Shown here in pieces: positions 1-10,674 of a DNA stretch of 10,674 nt. The DNA comes from Acanthopleuribacteraceae bacterium (lineage in GTDB: Bacteria > Acidobacteriota > Holophagae > Acanthopleuribacterales > Acanthopleuribacteraceae). Location of the stretch: positions 1 through 10,674 of the forward strand of contig JBGTRP010000180.1 of assembly GCA_041940685.1 (NCBI GenBank), in the 5' to 3' direction. Positions within the stretch are counted from its first letter, which is position 1. Each line of letters opens with the position of its first letter. A program made the position numbers and the translations under genes. Below the pieces are notes generated by a model, which did no database searches, had not been told where the DNA came from, and was given only the letters and a program-made list of their open reading frames with translations.

Positions 1-30
1 TGGCAAAAGACCGGCGCTAAGGTGAGGGAG

Positions 31-450
31 ATGCTTGCCAAACGAGCCACCCATGTGTACCTGCTGGAGCCGGTCGAGGCCGGGGACCGCTTTCCCGATC
101 GGTTAGAACGACCGGTCGATCCAAAAAAGCCAGGCGTCGTGCTTGCCCAAGTCTTCCTAGCGGATGGGGATATGGCGCAACTGGCAAGGCGGCTTCGTGC
201 TAGGCTAGTACCTGTACTTGAGCGGCGGGGCGCGCGTTTTCTCGGCCTGTTCCGGAGCAGCGACGAGGAAAATAACTTCCCCTACTTGCCCGTGATTCAG
301 GATAAGCGGGTGGTCGTGTGTTTTGCCAGTTTTGAATCGCGAACGATGTGTGAGCGCGTTCGCCAAGCCTGGCGTGGCGTTGCGGAACCCTTGGAAAGTT
401 TCCTCTTGGAGCCGGGACCGCGATCCAGGCTGTATCACCGCGGGGAATGA
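31..450 (+). CDS. Small alpha+beta protein (~140 aa). It weakly resembles the NIPSNAP/dimeric alpha-beta-barrel family, so its function is uncertain. It is translationally coupled to the downstream TetR gene.
   Basis: The ORF track gives 22..450 with a GTG start. An in-frame ATG at 31 sits 5 nt after AAGGTGA (19-25), a good Shine-Dalgarno sequence, so 31 is the likelier start. The C-terminal stretch VVVCFASFESRTMCERVRQAW has the hhhhW/F-x-Y/F-x-S-xxx-R pattern of NIPSNAP/Dabb-like barrels. The stop TGA (448-450) overlaps the ATG of the next gene (447-449). Confidence 0.55.
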   Translation: MLAKRATHVYLLEPVEAGDRFPDRLERPVDPKKPGVVLAQVFLADGDMAQLARRLRARLVPVLERRGARFLGLFRSSDEENNFPYLPVIQDKRVVVCFASFESRTMCERVRQAWRGVAEPLESFLLEPGPRSRLYHRGE

Positions 451-1052
451 GGCAGGCATTGACAACCCTTTCGAGCAAAAGGCGGCGCGGCTCACTTTCA
501 AGCCGCGACCGTTTAATCCAATCCGCGGCCACGCTTTTCTATGAAAGCGGAATCCACCAGACGAGCGTGGACGCGGTGGTTGCCCACGCGGGGTTGACCA
601 AGCCGACCCTTTACGCCCATTTTCCCTCCAAGGATGATCTGATTGAAGCGGTGGCCGAATACCGGGATAAAAATTGGCATGCCGCCATCGAGGCGCGGGT
701 AACCGAGGCCCAAACGCCGGCGGGCAAGTTGTTGGCCGTTTTCGAATTCCTCGAAGATTTTATCGAGGACAGCGGCTTTCGCGGTTGCGCCTTGGTCAAT
801 CTTGCCGTTGAGATTCACAACCCGGTTGGACCGGGCAAGGGCGCCGCCCGCTCGAACAAACAAAAAAACCGCGCCCGCATCAAGCGGCTTGTGCGGGAAG
901 CGGGCCTGATGGAATCCGCGGCGTTGGCCTCGGCGCTTTCCCTGCTGTTCGAGGGGGCGATTGTGACCGCCTATGTTGAGGGCGACGCCGGAGTGGGCAG
1001 AACCGCCCGCCAGGCTGCCGAACACCTGATCCGTAACCGGAGCGAATCGTAA
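447..1052 (+). CDS. TetR/AcrR-family transcriptional regulator
   Basis: The N-terminal helix-turn-helix RDRLIQSAATLFYESGIHQTSVDAVVAHAGLTKPTLYAHFPSKDDLIEAV is the canonical TetR_N signature (T-[ST]-[VI]-xx-[IV]-a-xxaGvs-kgtlY-xhFxsKe-xL). Its length (201 aa) and helical C-terminal ligand domain fit the family. The ATGA overlap with the upstream gene suggests one transcript. Confidence 0.9.
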   Translation: MRQALTTLSSKRRRGSLSSRDRLIQSAATLFYESGIHQTSVDAVVAHAGLTKPTLYAHFPSKDDLIEAVAEYRDKNWHAAIEARVTEAQTPAGKLLAVFEFLEDFIEDSGFRGCALVNLAVEIHNPVGPGKGAARSNKQKNRARIKRLVREAGLMESAALASALSLLFEGAIVTAYVEGDAGVGRTARQAAEHLIRNRSES

Positions 1053-1436: not shown

Positions 1437-4400
1437 CTAATCCTTAGCGGGTTTTGGTCTTGCGGTTTTTTGGGCGCGTCTGGGTTTGGGAGGGTCCAGT
1501 TTTTCGAGAACCTTTTTGAGGTAATCGATGATCAGGCCATGGGTGCCCAGGGAAGCCTTGACCGCGCTTTGTAACTGGCTCACTTGTTTGTCCTGATCGC
1601 GGATGGCCTCGTAGGTGGGTTTGAGCCAGTGCTGCATGATGGTGAACTGCTGGCGAACCACCCGCAGCAGGAACTTGGCTTCTCGGGCGGTGAGCGGCTC
1701 GCCCGCCTCGGCCGTCGGCTGCCGCGAATCCGCTTCTTGCTCCGGGGGCGCCGCTTGTTGCGGCAGGGATTCCACTATGCGCGTGAGGGCTTCCAGGGTG
1801 GGTTTTGAAAGCGCGGTATAGGTACGCATGGGCTTCTTGATACGTTCATTTTCGGCTTCCCTGGAGAGCGCCTGCAAATCGCGCAATTCTTCGATTCCCT
1901 TGTGAAGCGTATCGCGGATGGAGGTGAGCCCCGTACCGAAACCGCTGAGTTGGGCGATCACCTTGCCCATCTTGTCGCCCGATTCGATGCCGAAGAATTG
2001 CTGGCGCCGCTGAAACTCGGTTTTAATTTCTTCCCAGCGGGCGTTTTCCGCCTCAGTCAACACGCCCAGCAGCTCCCTGAACTTGAGCAGATTGGCTTCC
2101 GCCCCGCTGGTAAGCGTTTGCGCCTCGTTTTCGTAGTGCGTGAAGATCAGATTCTCGAGCTCCTCCTCGTTCATGACGGGCAGAACCTTTTCCGAGATTT
2201 TGTTCATGTTGCGGTAGGAGCCCTGCAGCTTGAAGGACGGCTCGGTGCGGTAGGCGTCCTCCTGAGCGGCGGAGCGAATATAGGCCTGGTTCACCCTGAG
2301 GATGACATCGCGCACCCGATAGAGTTTTCGGAGCACGTTGACGAACTCGTTGATTTCCTCGGGCGCGTAGTTGGCTTCCAGCTCTACGCCCTCCCGACTG
2401 CCGGACTCCGCGATGGACATGAGCCCATGCACGTCCTTTTGGCCGTGTGCGGCTAACCTGTTGAGCACCTGATTGGACGTGAGGCTGTTTTCCACATAGC
2501 TCTGCTCGAAGACGGTGGCGTGCTCGCCGATGATATCGCCCAGATTATAGGTGTCCGCGCGGTTGGCCAGCATATCGGGAATCTGAAACTTCTCGCCGCT
2601 TTCGGTATAGGGGTTGCCGGCCATGACCACGCATACCTTTTTGCCGCGCAGGTCATAGGTCTTTGTGCGCCCCTTGTAGACGCCCTCAATCTTGCGTTGC
2701 GCATCGCAGAGTGAGATGAATTTTTGCAGGAATTCGGGATTGCAATGCTGGATATCGTCTAGATAGATCATGATGTTGTCGCCCATTTCCAGGGAAAGGT
2801 TGAGCTTGGCGAGCTCTTCGCGCGCGCTGGAGTGCCGGGCGGTGGCGGGGTCGAGCGCCGTGGCCTCATGACCGATGGCGGGGCCGTTGATTTTCATGAA
2901 AATCAGGCCCAGCCTGTTGGCCACGTACTCCATGAGCGTGGTTTTCCCATAGCCCGGCGGGGAAACCAGCAGCAGCAGGCCCATGCGGTCGGTCCGTTTT
3001 TGGTCGCCGGCCGCGCCGATCTGCTTGGCGAGGTTATCGCCGATCAGGGGAAGGTACACCTGGTCCAGCAATCGGTTGCGCACGAAGGAGGTAAGCACGC
3101 GCGGCTTAAACTCTTCGAGGCGCAACTCGTTTGTAAAGCGCTCTGTCATGGTCTTTTTGAGAGAAACATAATGTTGGAAGGCGGGTAAGGATTCGCGCTT
3201 GAAGCGGGCCAGCTTGCTCATGAAACGGTTGTAATTGAGTCGGTAGACCCCCTTTTTCAGGATTGGGTGATCCCCCTTGAGACCCTCGATGGTTACGGAA
3301 ATCGGGATCTTGCATTCCTGATGGCCGTCGTAGTGGCCGCAAAAGAGCAGGGCCGCCGCCTCGTCGCGGAAGTCCATGCTGTCGGGATGTTTCTCGGCGA
3401 TGTAGGCCGCGGCCCATTCCCGGGTCAGGGCAAAGGCGCGCGCGGGGTCTTTGCCAAGGTCCTTGAGCGCCGACTCAAAATTTTCGTGAGCACCTCGATG
3501 CTTGAGATAGTGAACCAGGCCGCGGTAGATTTCTCCGGCCTCCATGCTCACGGCGAAGCTTGGACCGGCCATCAACTGGTGGAACAGGTAGACCGAGGCT
3601 TCCGGGGCCAGGGAAGCGTCGAAAAGCCGCGAGGTCTCGAGAAAGCGTTCGATCAACCCTCGCAATTCCGCGCCCTGGTCTCCCGCGCCCGCCCCTTCCG
3701 GAAACACGGAGCGCATGGCTTTCAATCCACCGAGGCTGGCTTGAATGCCGCTTTTGGCGCCTTGAGGGCAAAACGCGAACCAAAATACGGCCGCGCAGGC
3801 GCGGGCCTCGGGCGCGTGGGTCAGGAGGCCCAGGGCCTTTTTCATGGCGATTAGCCGCTCCAACAACAGCGCGGCATCCTGGTCGTGAACTCCCTTGGAG
3901 TAGCCCTCCTCGTAGCGTGGCCCCATGAAGCGCCGGACCAGCGCGGTCAGGTCCTCGTGACTCATGGCGGCGTTGGCTTTCAGGCCGGGCTCTTCTCCCT
4001 TTTCAAGGGCTTGCAGCAGGGTGTAGGCCAGAAATTCCGCGCGGTAGACCTCGCCATCTTCCGAGGGCGTCTCCATGCCCCAAACCGGCCTGGTCTCCAG
4101 GAAGGCCGGCTCCTTGATTTCCTCGAAGAAGTTGGTCCCAGTGAGATGGAAAAACTGGTTCTGATCGCGGGCGACCACGGTCAATGCCAAGGACTGGACG
4201 TTCACGGAAAAACGGTGCCGGCCCAGCTTGATGAGGCTGCCGCCCTCCTCGAAGATTTCCCGCTTGTCCTTGAGTTGGCGGACCGCCTCTTCCTTGAGCG
4301 TCTTCAGCCGGCCGCGCACATCGTCGGCCTTGACCGAGTCTTCGAGCTGAACCAGTTGTTCGACGATGTCGCGCACCTTTTCGATCATCATGTCGCCGGC

Positions 4401-6782
4401 GAAGTAGCCATGGATTTCGCTGACGGTTTCAAAGCGAGCCGCCCGGCTTTGGATGCCTTGGAGGATACGTTCGGCCGCGCCGAGCAGCGAGGCGGCCCGT
4501 TTGTTGCGCGATTCAACCAACCTCACCCGGCGCGCCTCGAAGGCGTTGTAAATTTCCTCGCGTTTCTCCGTGAGCAAGCCGATAAATTCGTCGAACTCGG
4601 AGAATTTCCCCTCGAGCTCCTCGATTTGCACCAGCAGTTTGGTGAGGTAGGTTTCGCATTTCTCCGGTTCGTCGCAGATATCCAAATAGTTGATCACACC
4701 CTGGTCGATCAGCTTCATTTGGGCGTTGAATTCGGCCACGCCCTCGGCCTGGCCCAGCTCCTGTCCGCGGTTTTTCAGCGCGGCCCTCGCCCGGTTGAGG
4801 ATGGCGTATATGGCGGAGATGCGATCGATGATGCGGGTCGTTTCGGTGGCGTCCTCGATCTTGAGATTGCTGACGACTTCGATCAATAGCTCAAGATCGG
4901 CAGCGGCTTGATCCAGCTCACGTCCCAAATCATTGGCGGCGCTGGCCCTTTCGATGCCTGGAACGCCCGCCTCCAGCTTTTCGATGCGTTGTTGGTAGGG
5001 ATCGAGCGCCGCGTCTTCCAACAGGAAGGACACGCATCCGGAAGAAAGCTTTTCGGTTTGGGCCAGAGCCTCTTTTTCCAATTGCGCGACCTTCTCCTGG
5101 TCCGCGTAACGCCGCTCTCCACTGGCGATGACCTCGCCGCGCAAACCGCGGAGTTCTGCGAGAAAGCCAACAAACTCCTCGATCCCCGTCAAACCGGCCC
5201 GCGCGATCTGACCGAAAAGCTGCTTGGCCTTTTCCGTCACGCGCGCGACCTCTTCGGCCGACGCCTTTTTGAGGCGATTCATCTTGTCGAATTCCTCGAT
5301 GGCGTTGCCGGCGGTCCTTTTGAGCTCCAGCAGCGTTTCTCTCAGGTTGCAGGCCGCGGGTTCCGCCAGCCAGAAATAAGCATCGTTAATGGCCGTGGTC
5401 TTCTTGACCAGGTCCAGGTACAGATTCGGGTAGGGGTCCTGGCGACGGAGCAGGCTCAGCACCTCGTGGCACTCTGCCATGCAGCGCACCACATCTTTGT
5501 TGCCGATCTTGTAGAGCTCGGATTCCTGATGAGCCGGAGGCTGATAGTTGGGGCTGACGTAGGGGGTTTGCCAGACCTGGAGGGCGTGGTGTTTCTGGGG
5601 TTCCTCCTCGGGTTTGAAAAAAATCAAAACGCCGTCCTGAAAAATGCTGTAACCGCCGCAGACGATGGGCGCTTCGACCTTTTGTTCGATGAGGTTGTAA
5701 GAAAGCAGAATGTAGAGGCCCTCATAGCGGTTGTAGAAGACGTAGAGGTAGTCCTCGCCGTTGGGAGCGGCGATGCGCTTCTCGAAAACCATGTCGCGCA
5801 AATGGCTGTCGAACTGTTTGAGCTCGCCCGAAATGAGATAGTAGCCACGGGGAAAGATCAGGCCATGGTCGTCGGGCAGGAGCACGCAGGAGTCCGCGAT
5901 GGCGTCGATTCGGTTGGCTTCCTGAAGATTCTCGTTGTAGAGGTAAAATCGATGGTCCTTTTCCTGGTAGGGGAGAATTCTCAAGAGGATGATCGGCCCT
6001 ATGGTGGCATAGGCGATTTCGGCGTCGTCGAGGGTTTGGTCCTGGTTTTCCACGGGCTCGCTCAAGATGCCCGAGCCCGTATCCGTATTGTCCTCGATCT
6101 TGATGGTGAGATCGCCGCCCGTGGTTTCCACGAAGAGTCGATCCTCGATGGACACATGCGGGAAACGGCCCATGCGTTGGTCGTCGCGGCGCGCCCGTTT
6201 CCACTCGAATTCGTGTTGAGCCGGGTAACGGAGCTCGTGATCGCTGCGGTTGTCCAGGTAGACCAGGGCGCCGTCCTTGATCAACCATTTAAAGGTTTTA
6301 AAATCGTTGATGGATTTGCCCGTGCGGAATTTCATGAACAGATGCGGGCCGATGATCGAGAATTTGGCGAATTCGGTGTCGCGGTAATACTTGTATAGCC
6401 CGAGAAAGTCGCGCTCGAAATCCGAGTTCCGGATCAGGTCCAAATCCAGCTCGTGAAATTCTTCTTCGCGGAATTCGTAAACCGCGAACACATCCTTGAG
6501 CCCAAGCCCGGAGCGAAGGCCCATGTGAACGTTATAGCCGAAAATGAACTTGCCGCCGATGGAGACGATGTCCCTGGACTCGCAATTGTTGGAGGTCGTG
6601 ATGCGTTGGCTGCTCTTGAGTTGCGTCTCGATGGAGCCGAAGGCCTGCTTGCGGGCCAGGTTTAGGTCTTCCAGCCGTTTCCCCAAGATCCTGGCTTGTT
6701 TCTCCAGCCGGCCTCGGATCACCTCGTAGGTGCCCCCTTCCATTTGGCCATCCGGGATAGGTTTTTTGGGTTGATCAGCCAA
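1437..6782 (-). CDS. Giant (1781 aa) soluble protein with one MoxR/AAA_5-type AAA+ ATPase module. The N-terminal ~450 aa are beta-rich, and ~500 aa of coiled-coil/helical sequence follow. The C-terminal ~330 aa are helical and end in a Pro/Lys/Arg-rich tail. Function unknown.
   Basis: A single uninterrupted 5.3-kb ORF. The Walker A motif is LLLVSPPGYGKTTL (Lys1280, nt ~2943-2945). The Walker B motif is NIMIYLDDIQH (Asp1342/1343, nt 2754-2759). Downstream, KVCVVMAGNPYTESGEKFQIPDMLANRADTYNLGD matches the MoxR/AAA_5 pattern (h-h-h-A-T-x-NP ... P-x-x-L-x-DR-F), i.e. sensor-1 Asn plus Arg finger. I saw no transmembrane segments. The tool start is TTG at 6782, preceded by GGGAG 7 nt upstream. The alternative ATG at 6743 (Met14) has a weaker ribosome-binding site. 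Confidence 0.9.
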   Translation of the reverse strand: MADQPKKPIPDGQMEGGTYEVIRGRLEKQARILGKRLEDLNLARKQAFGSIETQLKSSQRITTSNNCESRDIVSIGGKFIFGYNVHMGLRSGLGLKDVFAVYEFREEEFHELDLDLIRNSDFERDFLGLYKYYRDTEFAKFSIIGPHLFMKFRTGKSINDFKTFKWLIKDGALVYLDNRSDHELRYPAQHEFEWKRARRDDQRMGRFPHVSIEDRLFVETTGGDLTIKIEDNTDTGSGILSEPVENQDQTLDDAEIAYATIGPIILLRILPYQEKDHRFYLYNENLQEANRIDAIADSCVLLPDDHGLIFPRGYYLISGELKQFDSHLRDMVFEKRIAAPNGEDYLYVFYNRYEGLYILLSYNLIEQKVEAPIVCGGYSIFQDGVLIFFKPEEEPQKHHALQVWQTPYVSPNYQPPAHQESELYKIGNKDVVRCMAECHEVLSLLRRQDPYPNLYLDLVKKTTAINDAYFWLAEPAACNLRETLLELKRTAGNAIEEFDKMNRLKKASAEEVARVTEKAKQLFGQIARAGLTGIEEFVGFLAELRGLRGEVIASGERRYADQEKVAQLEKEALAQTEKLSSGCVSFLLEDAALDPYQQRIEKLEAGVPGIERASAANDLGRELDQAAADLELLIEVVSNLKIEDATETTRIIDRISAIYAILNRARAALKNRGQELGQAEGVAEFNAQMKLIDQGVINYLDICDEPEKCETYLTKLLVQIEELEGKFSEFDEFIGLLTEKREEIYNAFEARRVRLVESRNKRAASLLGAAERILQGIQSRAARFETVSEIHGYFAGDMMIEKVRDIVEQLVQLEDSVKADDVRGRLKTLKEEAVRQLKDKREIFEEGGSLIKLGRHRFSVNVQSLALTVVARDQNQFFHLTGTNFFEEIKEPAFLETRPVWGMETPSEDGEVYRAEFLAYTLLQALEKGEEPGLKANAAMSHEDLTALVRRFMGPRYEEGYSKGVHDQDAALLLERLIAMKKALGLLTHAPEARACAAVFWFAFCPQGAKSGIQASLGGLKAMRSVFPEGAGAGDQGAELRGLIERFLETSRLFDASLAPEASVYLFHQLMAGPSFAVSMEAGEIYRGLVHYLKHRGAHENFESALKDLGKDPARAFALTREWAAAYIAEKHPDSMDFRDEAAALLFCGHYDGHQECKIPISVTIEGLKGDHPILKKGVYRLNYNRFMSKLARFKRESLPAFQHYVSLKKTMTERFTNELRLEEFKPRVLTSFVRNRLLDQVYLPLIGDNLAKQIGAAGDQKRTDRMGLLLLVSPPGYGKTTLMEYVANRLGLIFMKINGPAIGHEATALDPATARHSSAREELAKLNLSLEMGDNIMIYLDDIQHCNPEFLQKFISLCDAQRKIEGVYKGRTKTYDLRGKKVCVVMAGNPYTESGEKFQIPDMLANRADTYNLGDIIGEHATVFEQSYVENSLTSNQVLNRLAAHGQKDVHGLMSIAESGSREGVELEANYAPEEINEFVNVLRKLYRVRDVILRVNQAYIRSAAQEDAYRTEPSFKLQGSYRNMNKISEKVLPVMNEEELENLIFTHYENEAQTLTSGAEANLLKFRELLGVLTEAENARWEEIKTEFQRRQQFFGIESGDKMGKVIAQLSGFGTGLTSIRDTLHKGIEELRDLQALSREAENERIKKPMRTYTALSKPTLEALTRIVESLPQQAAPPEQEADSRQPTAEAGEPLTAREAKFLLRVVRQQFTIMQHWLKPTYEAIRDQDKQVSQLQSAVKASLGTHGLIIDYLKKVLEKLDPPKPRRAQKTARPKPAKD
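2560..3070 (-). other. AAA+ ATPase core of the giant protein (Walker A, Walker B, sensor-1/Arg-finger region)
   Basis: Motif positions were read directly from the translation and are listed in the feature above. The family assignment (MoxR/AAA_5-like rather than classic-clade AAA) rests on the GNP...DMLANRAD arrangement. Confidence 0.75.
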
Positions 6783-6893: not shown

Positions 6894-8966
6894 TTACTTT
6901 TCGATGATTTCCGCGGAGTGCCCACCCAGACCCAGTTTCTCTACCCAGGAGAGGATCTTTTTCAGGCCCTCGCGTTCTGAATCCTTTTCGGTGAGTCCGA
7001 TCCATTTGGAGATCAGGGCGGCAAGCGAAATGTTTTTCAGGTCCTCGGAGCTCATCCCGAATTTGGAGACAAAGCTTCTGAGTTGCTGCTTGAATTCCTC
7101 GCCGTCGCCGGTAAAGAAGGTTTCCTTGATATCGCCCAAGACCCGGCTATTGTCCACCAGCCTGTCCACGGACTTGCCCTGGGTGACGGCGCCCACAATC
7201 TTCTCGAAGAACATGGATTCTCCGCCCACGATATCGATCTTGGCGGCCTTGAGCGCCTCGCGGATCACCGATGCCTGAGCCTCGGCGATTTCTTTCTGGA
7301 TGCCGATCTGCGAGAGCTCGATTTCCTTTTCCTTCATGAGCCTGAGCTTAAATTCCTCGTGATCGCGGCCCGCGCCGTCGAAAAGGCGCATGGCCTCGGC
7401 CTTTTCCTTGATGCCGGTGGCCTCTGACTGATATTTCTTGAGCAGCACATTGGCCTCGGTTTCGCCCTCGCGCTCCTTGGCCTCCGCCTTGGCCTGAATG
7501 CCACTGGCCTCGGCGAGGTATTTCTTCTCCAGTACCGTGGCTTCGGCGATGCCCTGCATCTCGGTGGCGTGGGCCTTGGCCTCCATCACTTGAGTTTCCG
7601 CGAGCCCGATGGCGGCCTCCTCCGCGGCTTGGGCCTCTGCAAGGAACTTACGCGCCTCCGCGTTCTTGTCCGCGGCCTTCTGGCCGGCTTCCGCCTCGAT
7701 GATTTTTTGTTCGGCCTCGAGCTCCGCCGCCCGTTTCTCGGCCTCGGCCGCCTTGATCGTTTTGACCAGGGACTCCTCGGCTTCCTTTTGCGCTTGTGTG
7801 ACGGCCACCTGCTTGCCGCGGTCGGCTTCCGCGAAGGCTCGCGTATCCTTGATCTTTTCCTCTTCCTGGACGACCGCCTTTTCCACCACCACCCGTTCGC
7901 GAATGACGTCCTGGATGTTTTTGCGCTCCTCTTCCACCGCCTTTTCTTTCTCGATATTGGCCAGGGTGACGATTCGTTCGCGCTCGACCACCTCCAGCAG
8001 GCGGTCTTTTTCGATGCGCTCGGTTTCGATGGACTCGGTGCGCTGCTTATTCTTCTGCGCCACGATCACCTGGCGTTCCTGGTTTTGGGTGGCGACCTGC
8101 ACCTCTTCATCCGTCTGGATGCGGGCCAACTCGGCCTTGCGCCGTTCTTCCTGTTGGATGCGTTTGGTCTCCGCCTCTTCACGCGCCTTGATGGACTCGA
8201 TTTCCCGCTGTTGCTTCTGTTTGCTCTCCGCCAACTGACGGTCGAGCTCCAGGATGGCCTCCGCGGCCTCCACATCCTGCTGTTTAATGGTCTTGGCGCG
8301 GTCGCGGTCGATTTGGTTGGACAGCACCTTCTGGCGGGAGGTGAGCTCGGTGATTTTTTTGATGCCCTCGGCGTCGAGAATATTGTCGGGACTCAGGTGG
8401 CCGAGCTCCGTTTGCTCCAGGTAATCAATGGCGCAATCCTCGAGCACATAACCGCTGAGATCGGTGCCGATCACCTGGAGGATCTCCTCCTTGAAGCGCT
8501 GGCGCGATTGATAGAGCTCCACGAAATCGAAGTTCTTACCCACGGTTTTAAGCGCCTCCGAGAACTTGGCGTCGAACAGCTCTTCCAGGGCGGACTGATT
8601 GGAGGCGCGCTGGGTGCCGATGGATTGGGCGACGTCCATGACCGATTGTTCGGTGTTGTTGATGCGCATGAAAAAGGCGACCTTGATGTCGGCGCGCATA
8701 TTGTCCCGGCAAACAAGGCCGTCGGTGCCGCTGCGCTGTATCTCGATGCGCTTGACGGAAATGTCCATAATCTCCAGCCGCCGAAAAATGGGGATCACCA
8801 GGAGCCCGCTGAAGGAAACCTTGGGTTTGGCGCCTCCGGTAAGGATCAGCGCCTTGCCCTGCTCGGCCTTGACATAAAACTTCTTGTAAAAGGCCGCGAT
8901 GCCTATCAGCATGAAAACAATGCTAACGCCGATCACAATAAAGAGATTTCCGAATAATTCCGCCAT
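6894..8966 (-). CDS. Flotillin-family SPFH/band-7 protein (YqiK/FloT-like), unusually long at ~690 aa
   Basis: The N-terminal hydrophobic segment LFGNLFIVIGVSIVFMLIGIAAFY is a membrane anchor. An SPFH domain follows (ALILTGGAKPKVSFSGLLVIPIFRRLEIMDISVKRIEIQ...DNMRADIKVAFFMRINN...). After it comes a very long Glu/Ala/Lys-rich coiled coil with flotillin-type EA repeats. The ORF track starts at TTG 8987, but the in-frame ATG at 8966 (MAELFGNLF) sits 6 nt after GGAGG, so I place the start there. That start is 1 nt downstream of the nfeD stop (TGAcATG), which indicates translational coupling. Confidence 0.9.
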   Translation of the reverse strand: MAELFGNLFIVIGVSIVFMLIGIAAFYKKFYVKAEQGKALILTGGAKPKVSFSGLLVIPIFRRLEIMDISVKRIEIQRSGTDGLVCRDNMRADIKVAFFMRINNTEQSVMDVAQSIGTQRASNQSALEELFDAKFSEALKTVGKNFDFVELYQSRQRFKEEILQVIGTDLSGYVLEDCAIDYLEQTELGHLSPDNILDAEGIKKITELTSRQKVLSNQIDRDRAKTIKQQDVEAAEAILELDRQLAESKQKQQREIESIKAREEAETKRIQQEERRKAELARIQTDEEVQVATQNQERQVIVAQKNKQRTESIETERIEKDRLLEVVERERIVTLANIEKEKAVEEERKNIQDVIRERVVVEKAVVQEEEKIKDTRAFAEADRGKQVAVTQAQKEAEESLVKTIKAAEAEKRAAELEAEQKIIEAEAGQKAADKNAEARKFLAEAQAAEEAAIGLAETQVMEAKAHATEMQGIAEATVLEKKYLAEASGIQAKAEAKEREGETEANVLLKKYQSEATGIKEKAEAMRLFDGAGRDHEEFKLRLMKEKEIELSQIGIQKEIAEAQASVIREALKAAKIDIVGGESMFFEKIVGAVTQGKSVDRLVDNSRVLGDIKETFFTGDGEEFKQQLRSFVSKFGMSSEDLKNISLAALISKWIGLTEKDSEREGLKKILSWVEKLGLGGHSAEIIEK
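7400..7600 (-). repeat. Intragenic tandem duplication (~33 codons x2) in the flotillin coiled-coil tail
   Basis: Protein repeats TEATVLEKKYLAEASGIQAKAEA and TEANVLLKKYQSEATGIKEKAEA. The corresponding DNA units are both of the form ggcctcgg...gtatttcttc/gag...ggcctcc. Confidence 0.6.
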
Positions 8967-8967
8967 G

Positions 8968-9654
8968 TCAGTCCTCCCACGCATCAAAATGTTCTACATA
9001 ATAAAAATTCGCGGCCGCATCCTTCTCGATGATCAGGGCCCGGCTCCCCTTGGGGAGCTTTTCACCAGGGCGCGTTCTCACGTTCACCACGAAGGGCGAG
9101 CCATCCGTGATGACCCTGCCTTGCGCCAGGCGAGACTCATCCGCGTCCGACAACAGAGTGCAAACCTGACCTTGCACGCTGCTGAGAGCCTTGCCGCCCA
9201 CTCCCGCGAATAGCTTCGCCAACGGCGTGGTTACCAGCTTGGTGAGCAAGACGCCGCCCAATAAAATGGGGATATAAGTCAGGAACGCCACCCAATCGAG
9301 GGGCGCCGGCCACGCGATCCGGATGACCATGGCAAGGGTCCAAAGGCTCAGGCTGAAAATACTGATGACCACCATGAACGGGATCGCGCCGATATTGAAA
9401 AAGGTAAGCACATCCGCCAGGTGGCCCGGATCGGCATGCAGATCGGCGTCCGCGTCAAGGTCCGAGTGGAGATCCATATCGGCATGAAGGTCTACATCCA
9501 AATCAGGACCCTGATGGCCGTCCAAATGAAAATCGAGGAAATCCAGGTCCAGCGCGCCGATAATGACCCCCAGCCAATAGACCATCACCAGGCCAAGGAA
9601 CAGAGTAAACGGCAGGTTTATGGTGGTCGTGGCCGCCTGCCAGAGCTCCAGCAT
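8968..9654 (-). CDS. NfeD/YqiJ-like inner-membrane protein. It is the short NfeD form, with an OB-fold C-terminus and no protease domain. It is the upstream partner of the flotillin gene.
   Basis: There are three predicted transmembrane helices (TTTINLPFTLFLGLVMVYWLGVIIGAL; VLTFFNIGAIPFMVVISIFSLSLWTLAMVI; WVAFLTYIPILLGGVLLTKLV). The C-terminal soluble domain GQVCTLLSDADESRLAQGRVITDGSPFVVNVRTRPGEKLPKGSRALIIEKD is typical of the NfeD beta-barrel. Gene order, with nfeD directly upstream of and overlapping a flotillin gene, matches the yqiJ-yqiK and nfeD2-floT pairs. The ATG at 9654 is preceded by AGGAGGAG. Confidence 0.85.
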   Translation of the reverse strand: MLELWQAATTTINLPFTLFLGLVMVYWLGVIIGALDLDFLDFHLDGHQGPDLDVDLHADMDLHSDLDADADLHADPGHLADVLTFFNIGAIPFMVVISIFSLSLWTLAMVIRIAWPAPLDWVAFLTYIPILLGGVLLTKLVTTPLAKLFAGVGGKALSSVQGQVCTLLSDADESRLAQGRVITDGSPFVVNVRTRPGEKLPKGSRALIIEKDAAANFYYVEHFDAWED

Positions 9655-9657
9655 AGT

Positions 9658-9665
9658 CTCCTCCT
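9658..9665 (-). promoter_or_regulatory. Shine-Dalgarno sequence (AGGAGGAG) for the nfeD-like gene
   Basis: The sequence is the revcomp of ctcctcct. The spacer to the ATG at 9654 is 3-5 nt. Confidence 0.7.
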
Positions 9666-9959
9666 GATAAATGGCGACCTCCGCGCCGGGACGAGCGCTT
9701 CCTCCTGGGGACTCCTCCGCCTTGGCGGCGGAAAGCCGTGCTCGGGGTTTGGAGATCGTTTCGCATGCCCTTACCCGTCCCCGAGCCTTCTCTTCTGGAA
9801 GAAGGACGGAAAAAAGAGATCACTATGAGTTAAGTGTAAAAGAGCCAGGAATCATCTCATCCGCGAGGGCCGTTTTATCACCGGGCCGCGGGGGCTGAAT
9901 CCATGGGAGCGCGTTGAAATTTCGGCCGTTCCCGATAGCCCCATGAAGCCGGGTGGGCG

Positions 9960-10674
9960 CTATTCGTACATGGACTCGATCACGGATGTGTACTTCTGGT
10001 TGACCACCTTGCGCTTGACCTTCATGCTGGGCGTGAGCTCGCCGCCCTCCACGGATAGAATTTCCGGGATGATGGTGAATTTCTTGACCCGCTCGTAGTG
10101 GGCGAACCCGTTCATCTGTTTTTCGATCTCCGTCTCAATGAGCTTCAGAAAATCGGGGTTTTGAGAGAGGGCGATGGGGTCGGTTGGCCAAGCCTTGGCC
10201 GGGGCCCACTCCTCGACGTTCTCCCAAGGCGGCATAATGAGCGCCGAAACGAAATTGCGTTTGTCGCCGATGATGACGGCCTGCTCAATCATGGGGCTCA
10301 GCTTGAGGGCGTTTTCCAGGGGCTGTGGCGCAATGTTCTTTCCTCCCGAGGTGACGATGAGATCCTTTTTGCGGTCCGTGATGGTGAGGTAGTTGTCCTC
10401 GTCCAGGACACCAATATCGCCGGTATGAAACCAGCCGTCCACGATCGCCTCGGCCGTGGAGGAGCAGGCCGCGACCACGAGCGAGATCGCTCGCTCGGGA
10501 AGAAACTCGACGTGAAACAGCTTCTCCGAGAGTGAAACAAATGGATTCGTCGGCAACCCTGGCTGCGACGGCGTGAGCATCCACGTGAGCAGTTCCCAGC
10601 GTGAGACTCGGTCCACCGGTCCCGGGGCGCTGCTGTAGATCGTGTGTGCAAAGAACGCAGCCAGGAACGCAACT
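9960..10674 (-). CDS. Long-chain fatty-acid--CoA ligase (AMP-dependent synthetase), C-terminal ~235 aa only. The gene continues beyond the window edge.
   Basis: The C-terminal-domain motifs [10 protein letters not shown]...[26 protein letters not shown]...[21 protein letters not shown]...[13 protein letters not shown]...[10 protein letters not shown] are conserved in ACSL/FadD-type enzymes. The frame stays open to 10674, so the ORF-track start at 10616 is an internal GTG. Confidence 0.8.

Follow-up and report, generated by a model that had tools for sequence, protein, structure and literature searches.

Introduction

The closest described relative of the locus studied here is an operon that was recognized by comparative genomics and combines CesT/Tir-PspA, a YqiJ/YuaF-type protein with three transmembrane helices, a band-7/flotillin protein and an AAA+ ATPase (Ravi et al., 2024, mSystems, PMC11237479). 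The same study proposed a role of the operon in sub-membrane assembly and dynamics and described abbreviated operons without PspA as widely distributed. Here, we analyzed a 10,674-nucleotide stretch of DNA (called the window) from an Acanthopleuribacteraceae bacterium (assembly GCA_041940685.1, contig JBGTRP010000180.1), which encodes a giant ATPase of 1781 residues on its minus strand. As judged from gene order and similarity, the ATPase gene is the third gene of a conserved operon, behind a yqiJ-like gene and a gene for a YqiK-like flotillin. The window resembles the published operon in its YqiJ-like and band-7/flotillin partners and in an ATPase made up of DUF3686, DUF7902 and one AAA+ module; it differs in its abbreviated form, in a C-terminal tail that is limited to close relatives and in the distance to its closest relative, which is 61% identical. 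The giant ATPase is typical of a catalogued family, and the operon context of this family has already been published; the result for this window is to that extent modest: one more member of a family already noted in silico.

The role of bacterial flotillins and the building and dismantling of their assemblies are still unsettled. Our best reading, for which we consider the odds slightly favorable, is that the giant ATPase is a cytoplasmic ATP-driven remodeller of flotillin/PspA membrane assemblies. A search of the literature yielded neither experimental work on the ATPase nor a paper naming DUF3686/PF12458, and the ATPase is not involved in the paper on Shewanella SO1376/SO1377 or in that on an SPFH protein of P. 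aeruginosa.

Results

The ATPase gene follows a dedicated flotillin gene

Synteny was investigated in those 71 of the retrieved loci that extend for 3.3 kb or more upstream of the ATPase gene. A flotillin gene was present upstream on the same strand in 70 of the 71 loci, and a YqiJ-like gene was detectable in 66 of them. In the window, a model working from the letters of the DNA without database searches (called the sequence-only reading) had named a flotillin as the neighbour, and this identification was confirmed: residues 1-240 of the neighbouring protein matched Band_7/SPFH (E-value 1.6e-10), and the protein shares 30% identity with E. coli YqiK across 444 residues (E-value 3e-48). The Pfam scan with the full-length flotillin returned nothing; its charged helical region possibly triggers the HMMER bias filter. 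The YqiJ-like protein was similar to E. coli YqiJ (E-value 4e-5) and matched YqiJ_N with an E-value of 0.0077, short of the Pfam cutoff.

The C-terminal ~137 residues of the flotillin (561-697; positions 6897-7307, minus strand) showed no Pfam match and no alignment to E. coli YqiK and are 36-62% identical across ATPase-linked loci. Against the PDB they gave a weak match to Lmo0547 (E-value 8e-4), which we took as irrelevant. In the plasmid collection PLSDB, matches to these 137 residues were confined to records that carry the ATPase. Of the 306 PLSDB records with a YqiK-like SPFH domain, the 13 best (42-60% identity) were exactly the 13 ATPase-bearing records, after which identity fell to 32% or less. 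The ATPase is thus accompanied by a flotillin subfamily of its own. Given the near-constant place of its gene after this dedicated flotillin and a YqiJ-type partner, the ATPase most likely acts on a membrane scaffold and not in DNA repair.

PspA joins the operon in some lineages. CesT-PspA was encoded directly upstream in 22 Bacteroidota loci, and two more loci carried PspA without detectable CesT, in one case downstream on the opposite strand. Locus L004 reproduces the full operon version of Ravi et al. On pQBR103, a megaplasmid of P. fluorescens SBW25 (L086, NC_009444.1 84437-97641), the three genes are preceded by the order YjfI-PspA-rhomboid-DUF2491-DUF350-DUF1190-GspS, i.e. a complete yjf-type PspA cluster with GspS as glutathionylspermidine synthase. 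In the window, no CesT-PspA was detected in the ~1 kb of sequence that precedes the yqiJ-like gene, where a truncated AMP-binding gene is located, and the window was therefore assigned to the abbreviated three-gene version. A gene for a helix-turn-helix (HTH)-S24 protein was found just upstream on the opposite strand in 23 loci, all from Bacteroidota. In some Bacteroidota (L004, L029, L072, L081) the ATPase gene is followed by a cluster of DUF4178, an unknown protein, DUF350 and a spermine synthase-like protein, the polyamine-linked PspA neighbourhood that Ravi et al. (2024, PMC11237479) also described.

With the listed TTG start (8987), the reading frame of the flotillin shares 20 nt with the yqiJ-like gene. 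A further in-frame start codon, the ATG at 8966, follows the yqiJ-like stop codon (8968-8970) at a distance of 1 nt and closely precedes the transmembrane helix. This ATG is probably the true start, and its position suggests translational coupling with the yqiJ-like gene.

A catalogued family with a fixed architecture

More than 4,900 homologues of the giant ATPase were retrieved by a word-indexed search. The best 120 of them aligned over 91-100% of the query at 51-61% identity and belonged to Acidobacteriota, Planctomycetota, Bacteroidota, Desulfobacterota and other phyla; the nearest relatives were Sulfidibacter and Acanthopleuribacter from the Acidobacteriota (58-61% identity), and even the closest reached only 61%. 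A HMMER scan of 1.84 billion cluster representatives (clustered at 50% identity) gave 705 clusters at E-values of 1e-3 or below, and a scan of one genome per GTDB species detected a homologue in at least 435 species. Among 150 listed entries, nearly all of full length (1,600-1,900 residues) contained the domain at residues ~10-500, and the shorter entries look like fragments. The giant ATPase has the full architecture, i.e. DUF3686, DUF7902 and one AAA+ module in a protein of ~1,600-1,900 residues. The sequence-only reading had called a single MoxR-like module embedded in ~1500 residues of uncharacterised sequence unusual; this view did not survive, as the arrangement is that of a fixed, catalogued family.

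Two apparent fusions in the homologue set, of a flotillin with the ATPase (P0236) and of an NfeD protease with the ATPase (P0129), are connected by junk linkers. They were taken as frameshift or gene-calling artefacts and not as Rosetta-stone evidence. One entry of 1711 residues from EukProt (P0112, dinoflagellate Durusdinium trenchii) is 55% identical to the query and probably reflects bacterial contamination or a recent transfer.

The reading frame from 1437 to 6782 on the minus strand, with its 1781 residues, was found as originally described (Table 1). The identical database protein (P0001) starts at an ATG at 6743, corresponding to Met14, and comprises 1768 residues. A GGGAG sequence is located 7 nt 5' of the TTG at 6782, and the N-terminus of the longer protein, 'MA..P...ME.GTYE', fits the consensus 'MAxxxxxxxxxxPxxxLExGTYE' of 102 homologues. 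The TTG start is plausible, and the longer coordinates are reasonable because of this upstream sequence and the agreement with the homologues. Hydropathy analysis revealed zero hydrophobic segments of transmembrane strength in the giant ATPase, and by this measure it is a soluble, cytoplasmic protein.

Table 1. Coordinates of the giant ATPase, its domains and motifs, and its two operon partners in the window.
Feature	Residues	Position	Strand	Basis and remarks
Giant DUF3686/AAA+ ATPase, whole gene		1437..6782	-	1781 codons from TTG 6782; stop codon 1437-1439
N-terminal long helix	15-48	6639..6740	-	in the model, packs with the helices after the propeller
Beta-propeller-like domain	54-405	5568..6623	-	~27 strands, core of Pfam DUF3686
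Helical bundle after propeller	422-492	5307..5519	-	model helices 409-479 in P0001 numbering
Rod of long amphipathic helices	~464-846 (~380 residues)	4245..5393	-	sequence evidence; first ~30 residues overlap the helical bundle
DUF7902 (PF25472), inside the rod	592-674	4761..5009	-	Pfam, E-value 8.6e-28
Short conserved beta-looking segment GGSLIKLGRHRFSVNVQSLALTVVARDQNQFFHLTGTNFFEEIK	847-890	4113..4244	-	sequence pattern, conservation; 3.5-residue periodicity lost
Compact all-alpha domain before the ATPase	942-1222 (~280 residues)	3117..3959	-	AlphaFold2 model residues 50-330, predicted local distance difference test score (pLDDT) mostly >95
Single AAA+ alpha/beta core	1237-1432	2487..3074	-	Pfam AAA and AAA_5; model strands b1-b5 and pre-sensor-1 hairpin
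Walker A SPPGYGKTT	K1280	2937..2963	-	SPPGYGKT invariant in 67/67 divergent representatives
Walker B MIYLDDIQH	D1342, D1343	2745..2771	-	D-D, Q and H invariant in 67/67, Ile in 66/67
Sensor 1 and candidate arginine finger VVMAGNPYTESGEKFQIPDMLANRAD	N1390, R1408	2553..2630	-	GNPYT and PDMLxNR essentially invariant
Lid and post-AAA helical region	1438-1596	1995..2471	-	invariant QGSYRNM at 2205-2225; R1524 as sensor-2 candidate
C-terminal long helices	1604-1762	1497..1973	-	model helices 712-752 and 807-870
Basic, Pro-rich tail DPPKPRRAQKTARPKPAKD		1440..1496	-	predicted disordered, pLDDT <50; close relatives only
YqiK-like flotillin, 697 residues		6894..8987	-	one transmembrane helix (15-33), SPFH domain, charged helical region, family-specific C-terminal domain
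YqiJ/NfeD-like membrane protein, three hydrophobic segments		8968..9654	-	hydropathy, similarity to E. coli YqiJ, synteny

The AAA+ module is conserved down to its catalytic motifs

Two AlphaFold2 models were calculated, one for the first 480 residues (model 1, for which 102 homologues were used) and one for residues 893-1781 (model 2). Model 2 (pLDDT 83.7) shows, in this order, the all-alpha domain, the AAA+ core, the lid helices, two very long C-terminal helices and a disordered tail. All motifs quoted in the sequence-only reading were present at the given residues, i.e. K1280, D1342/D1343, VVMAGNPYTESG...IPDMLANRAD and the tail DPPKPRRAQKTARPKPAKD, and its assignment to a single AAA_5/MoxR-like module is supported by sequence as well as by structure. 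Residues 1270-1395 matched Pfam AAA with 28.3 bits, above the cutoff, and AAA_5 with 25.5 bits against a cutoff of 22, so that these scores barely exceed the Pfam cutoffs and the margins for the MoxR class are small. The AAA_5 alignment covered 126 of 139 profile positions. In Foldseek searches of the PDB, the best structural neighbours of the module were the MoxR proteins NorQ and CbbQ (TM-score normalised to the target 0.55-0.57), followed by weaker matches to RuvB (0.35 on the same scale) and then to Vps4 and ClpA/B. Pfam located one AAA stretch and the model contains one alpha/beta core, in line with the claim of one module only. PDB sequence and profile searches with the giant ATPase yielded only P-loop-centred matches of ~40-80 residues, and no solved structure for any member of the DUF3686 family was found in the PDB searches.

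Motif conservation was assessed across 67 divergent representatives of full length, with N-terminal domains that share 29-54% identity with that of the query. SPPGYGKT, DDIQH, GNPYT, PDMLxNR and QGSYRNM were invariant or nearly so, with single conservative exchanges at three positions; in GNPYT and PDMLxNR these were one Y to F and one D to E exchange. N1390 and R1408, the candidate arginine finger, were invariant. Walker A, sensor 1, five core strands and the lid helices, i.e. traits of the AAA+ superfamily, were present in model and sequence, and a pre-sensor-1 beta-hairpin was seen in model 2 at model residues 472-485. The Walker B motif was Asp-Asp in all 67 representatives, with Asp at the position of the catalytic Glu of hhhhDE, and was never Asp-Glu, which suggests a slow, switch-like hydrolysis. 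Between strand beta-2 and helix 2 the model contains only a conserved loop (NGPAxGH...LDP), and the helix-2 beta-hairpin of MoxR proteins was not seen.

This near-invariant loop after strand beta-2 (K-I-N-G-P-A-I-G-H...L-D-P, residues 1297-1310, positions 2853-2894, minus strand) sits where pore loop 1 or a helix-2 insert would be and is devoid of aromatic residues. It may be the substrate-contacting element of the family.

An N-terminal propeller, a helical rod and long C-terminal helices

Pfam DUF3686 (PF12458) covers residues 33-470 (E-value 2.8e-178, 593.5 bits against a cutoff of 25, profile positions 2-448 of 448), and the statement that the N-terminus carries no recognisable motif has thus to be abandoned. 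The proposal of a beta-rich, possibly propeller-shaped N-terminus fared well. Model 1 was predicted with high confidence (pLDDT 90.6, predicted TM-score 0.90) and consists of a long N-terminal helix, ~27 beta-strands and then four or five helices. Foldseek returned 176 PDB matches at E-values of 1e-3 or below, of which the best 50 were mostly beta-propellers from many families with at most 12% identity and TM-scores of 0.1-0.4. Because the matches are propellers of many families at low identity and low TM-scores, the N-terminus is, according to the model, a divergent propeller closed by a helical bundle, without a specific characterised relative. Neither end of the protein maps to a characterised family. 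Some homologues (P0054 and P0110) bear ankyrin repeats N-terminal to DUF3686, which fits a protein-docking role for the N-terminus.

Heptad-like helices had been placed at residues ~470-1000. This assignment holds for residues ~464-846 and fails beyond, where residues 847-890 look like beta structure by sequence and model 2 folds residues 942-1222 into a compact all-alpha domain. A hydrophobic periodicity of 3.5 residues was enriched between residues 401 and 850 only, and the rod sequence is poor in Pro and Gly. Stretches of the rod without conserved Gly, Pro or indels are 85, 40, 85, 24, 18, 50, 15 and 54 residues long, and the rod thus looks like several long helices and not like one continuous coiled coil. 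For the all-alpha domain, the best 50 Foldseek matches in the PDB were all AAA+ chains and contained no specific alignment to it.

The C-terminal helices are interrupted by linkers of low confidence (pLDDT <50 at model residues 751-764 and 781-805). As for the basic Pro-rich tail of the sequence-only reading, it is real and predicted to be disordered, but it is not a feature of the family: a net charge of at least +4 in the last 25 residues was found in 26 of 185 homologues only. A function of the tail as membrane or DNA anchor was rejected as a family property, most homologues being devoid of it.

Discussion

Invariant catalytic motifs, 50-60% identity over 1,800 residues across phyla and a near one-to-one tie to its own flotillin subfamily, joined by PspA in some lineages, make the ATPase the obvious candidate for the energy-dependent factor missing from the picture of bacterial flotillins. 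If it is indeed a remodeller of flotillin/PspA membrane assemblies, its AAA+ modules would oligomerise, probably as a hexamer, and the propeller, the helical bundle and the long rod would extend to the flotillin/YqiJ assembly and bind it on its cytoplasmic side. The likeliest docking site would be the subfamily-specific C-terminal domain of the flotillin. Through ATP binding and hydrolysis, the SPFH scaffold, its clients or PspA polymers that co-operate with it would be assembled, taken apart or remodelled, presumably in the setting of membrane stress or maintenance and by analogy to the action of Vps4 on ESCRT-III or of FtsH paired with the HflK/C cage. In a more specific version, to which we attach a low but not negligible probability, an ATPase ring would dock via propeller and rod on the cytoplasmic apex of a closed flotillin/YqiJ cage, and ATP would open the cage, disassemble it or feed it with clients, in cooperation with PspA polymers. 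Such a ring on a flotillin cage would be a bacterial counterpart of Vps4/p97 for SPFH membrane microdomains and the first dedicated energy-consuming partner of bacterial flotillins.

Several observations argue against a remodelling role. In 19 of the 70 loci, at least 600 bp or extra genes separate the flotillin gene from the ATPase gene, and one locus from a Desulfobacteraceae metagenome-assembled genome (L020) has neither a flotillin nor a YqiJ-like gene nearby despite 10 kb of upstream DNA. The YqiJK proteins of E. coli and SO1376-77 of Shewanella function without such an ATPase. The Asp-Asp Walker B motif could also mean weak hydrolysis or none at all. Finally, MoxR-type ATPases normally pair with a VWA partner, and neither the window nor the annotated surroundings of six loci, each from a different phylum, contained a VWA/MIDAS family.

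Pairs of membrane scaffolds and ATPases are known from other systems. FtsH-HflKC is an AAA+ machine paired with an SPFH cage, and HflK/C-FtsH as well as prohibitin and the m-AAA protease share with the present operon the genetic coupling of an SPFH membrane scaffold to an AAA+ ATPase. They differ in that the giant ATPase has neither a protease domain nor a transmembrane anchor and that its scaffold protein belongs to the flotillin/YqiK type of SPFH proteins and is accompanied by a YqiJ/NfeD partner. Similar to Vps4/ESCRT-III, the ATPase gene is linked to a gene for PspA, a member of the ESCRT-III superfamily, in Bacteroidota and on pQBR103. In contrast to Vps4/ESCRT-III, an MIT domain was not detected in the giant ATPase, PspA is absent from the window, and the ATPase belongs to another AAA+ clade, NorQ being a better structural match to it than Vps4. 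For PspA-linked AAA+ proteins in general, the Vps4/ESCRT-III analogy was proposed by Ravi et al. (2024, PMC11237479).

The structural match to NorQ and CbbQ together with the AAA_5 match is also what would be expected of a MoxR-style chaperone that matures a membrane complex or cofactor, with the flotillin as a mere platform and not as the substrate, and SPFH scaffolds are known to host client proteins. With the MoxR class (NorQ, CbbQ and RavA; AAA_5/AAA_3) the giant ATPase shares the 'GNP...G....P..L.NR' sensor-1/arginine region and the pre-sensor-1 hairpin. Yet it is about six times larger than a typical MoxR protein, its P-loop SPPGYGKTT resembles that of classical AAA proteins and RuvB, its Walker B motif is Asp-Asp, no VWA partner gene was found, and no helix-2 hairpin is seen in the model. 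Besides the flotillin, the YqiJ-like protein and, in some phyla, PspA, no conserved client candidate was found in the operon, and we consider a maturation chaperone unlikely.

Similarly unlikely, in our view, is a structural tether or scaffold in which the rod links flotillin microdomains to another cell structure and ATP serves as a conformational switch and not as fuel. The ~380-residue rod, the long C-terminal helices, the invariant Asp-Asp in place of the usual Asp-Glu and the ankyrin repeats of some homologues, which point to docking, would all fit such a tether, whereas sensor 1 and the candidates for arginine finger and sensor 2 are all invariant, which is more than a pure binding switch should need and is the one direct argument against the tether. 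Long helical extensions of an AAA_5-type module are also known from dynein and midasin, but these contain six AAA+ modules per chain in comparison to one in the giant ATPase, whose rod is N-terminal to the module instead of being inserted in it and whose remaining parts are a propeller or all-alpha.

Giant ATPases whose sensor domains are propellers or repeats occur commonly in defence systems, and the protein might sense infection as part of an anti-phage or abortive-infection module with the membrane proteins as effectors. A PLD-family gene and the HTH-S24 regulator in some loci and the presence of the module on megaplasmids such as pQBR103 would be in agreement with this scenario, which we nevertheless regard as very unlikely. 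For the three proteins of the operon, PADLOC-DB 2.0 gave a single match, 29 residues of the P-loop to IetA (E-value 0.0026), no match was obtained in 50,697 phage records, and 13 of 72,556 plasmid records carry the ATPase, several of which are chromosomes or chromids. The fixed architecture and the unusually strong conservation (51-61% identity over 1,800 residues across phyla) as well as genomic surroundings of metabolic and housekeeping genes instead of defence islands also speak against defence.

A DNA-repair ATPase, e.g. an SMC/Rad50-like or RuvB-like motor on DNA, is hardly credible although NCBI (where homologues are named, this is the usual name) and Pfam call the family 'DNA repair ATPase', the local tail is basic and the HTH-S24 (LexA-like peptidase) gene adjoins the operon in Bacteroidota, since the weak RuvB matches span ~50 residues at the P-loop (24.7 bits against an NCBIfam RuvB cutoff of 282, RuvB_N below the Pfam cutoff), searches of Pfam and NCBIfam revealed no SMC/ABC-type ATPase, nuclease or DNA-binding domain, including the SMC_N/AAA_23 ABC-type head of SMC/Rad50/RecN, from which the giant ATPase further differs by its AAA+ fold and a P-loop C-terminal to the rod, the conserved neighbours are membrane proteins, the basic tail is missing from most homologues and no link between the family and DNA repair was found in the literature. 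The widespread annotation is thus without visible support.

Whether the ATPase remodels flotillin assemblies is directly testable because the family occurs in cultured or genetically tractable organisms, among them Proteus mirabilis, Vibrio campbellii, P. fluorescens SBW25 with pQBR103, Streptomyces, Deinococcus, Gimesia and Hymenobacter. The pQBR103 cluster represents a ready-made genetic system for the family.

Neighbouring genes and intergenic regions

A GC-rich hairpin between the flotillin and ATPase genes was dismissed, since it is no more stable than shuffled sequence (z = -0.11). Promoter and terminator scans remained at background level. A promoter would be expected in the 305-nt gap before the three-gene operon (9655-9959), where the sigma-70 scan detected none. 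Upstream of the yqiJ-like gene, the C-terminal part of a gene for an AMP-binding (acyl-CoA ligase-type) enzyme is located at 9960-10616 on the minus strand and probably continues beyond the window. At the other end, a gene for a TetR-family regulator (447-1052, plus strand; TetR_N E-value 1.9e-16) is oriented convergently to the giant gene and faces its 3' end. The TetR gene is preceded by an open reading frame of 142 residues without family match (22-450, plus strand), whose stop codon overlaps the TetR start by 4 nt.

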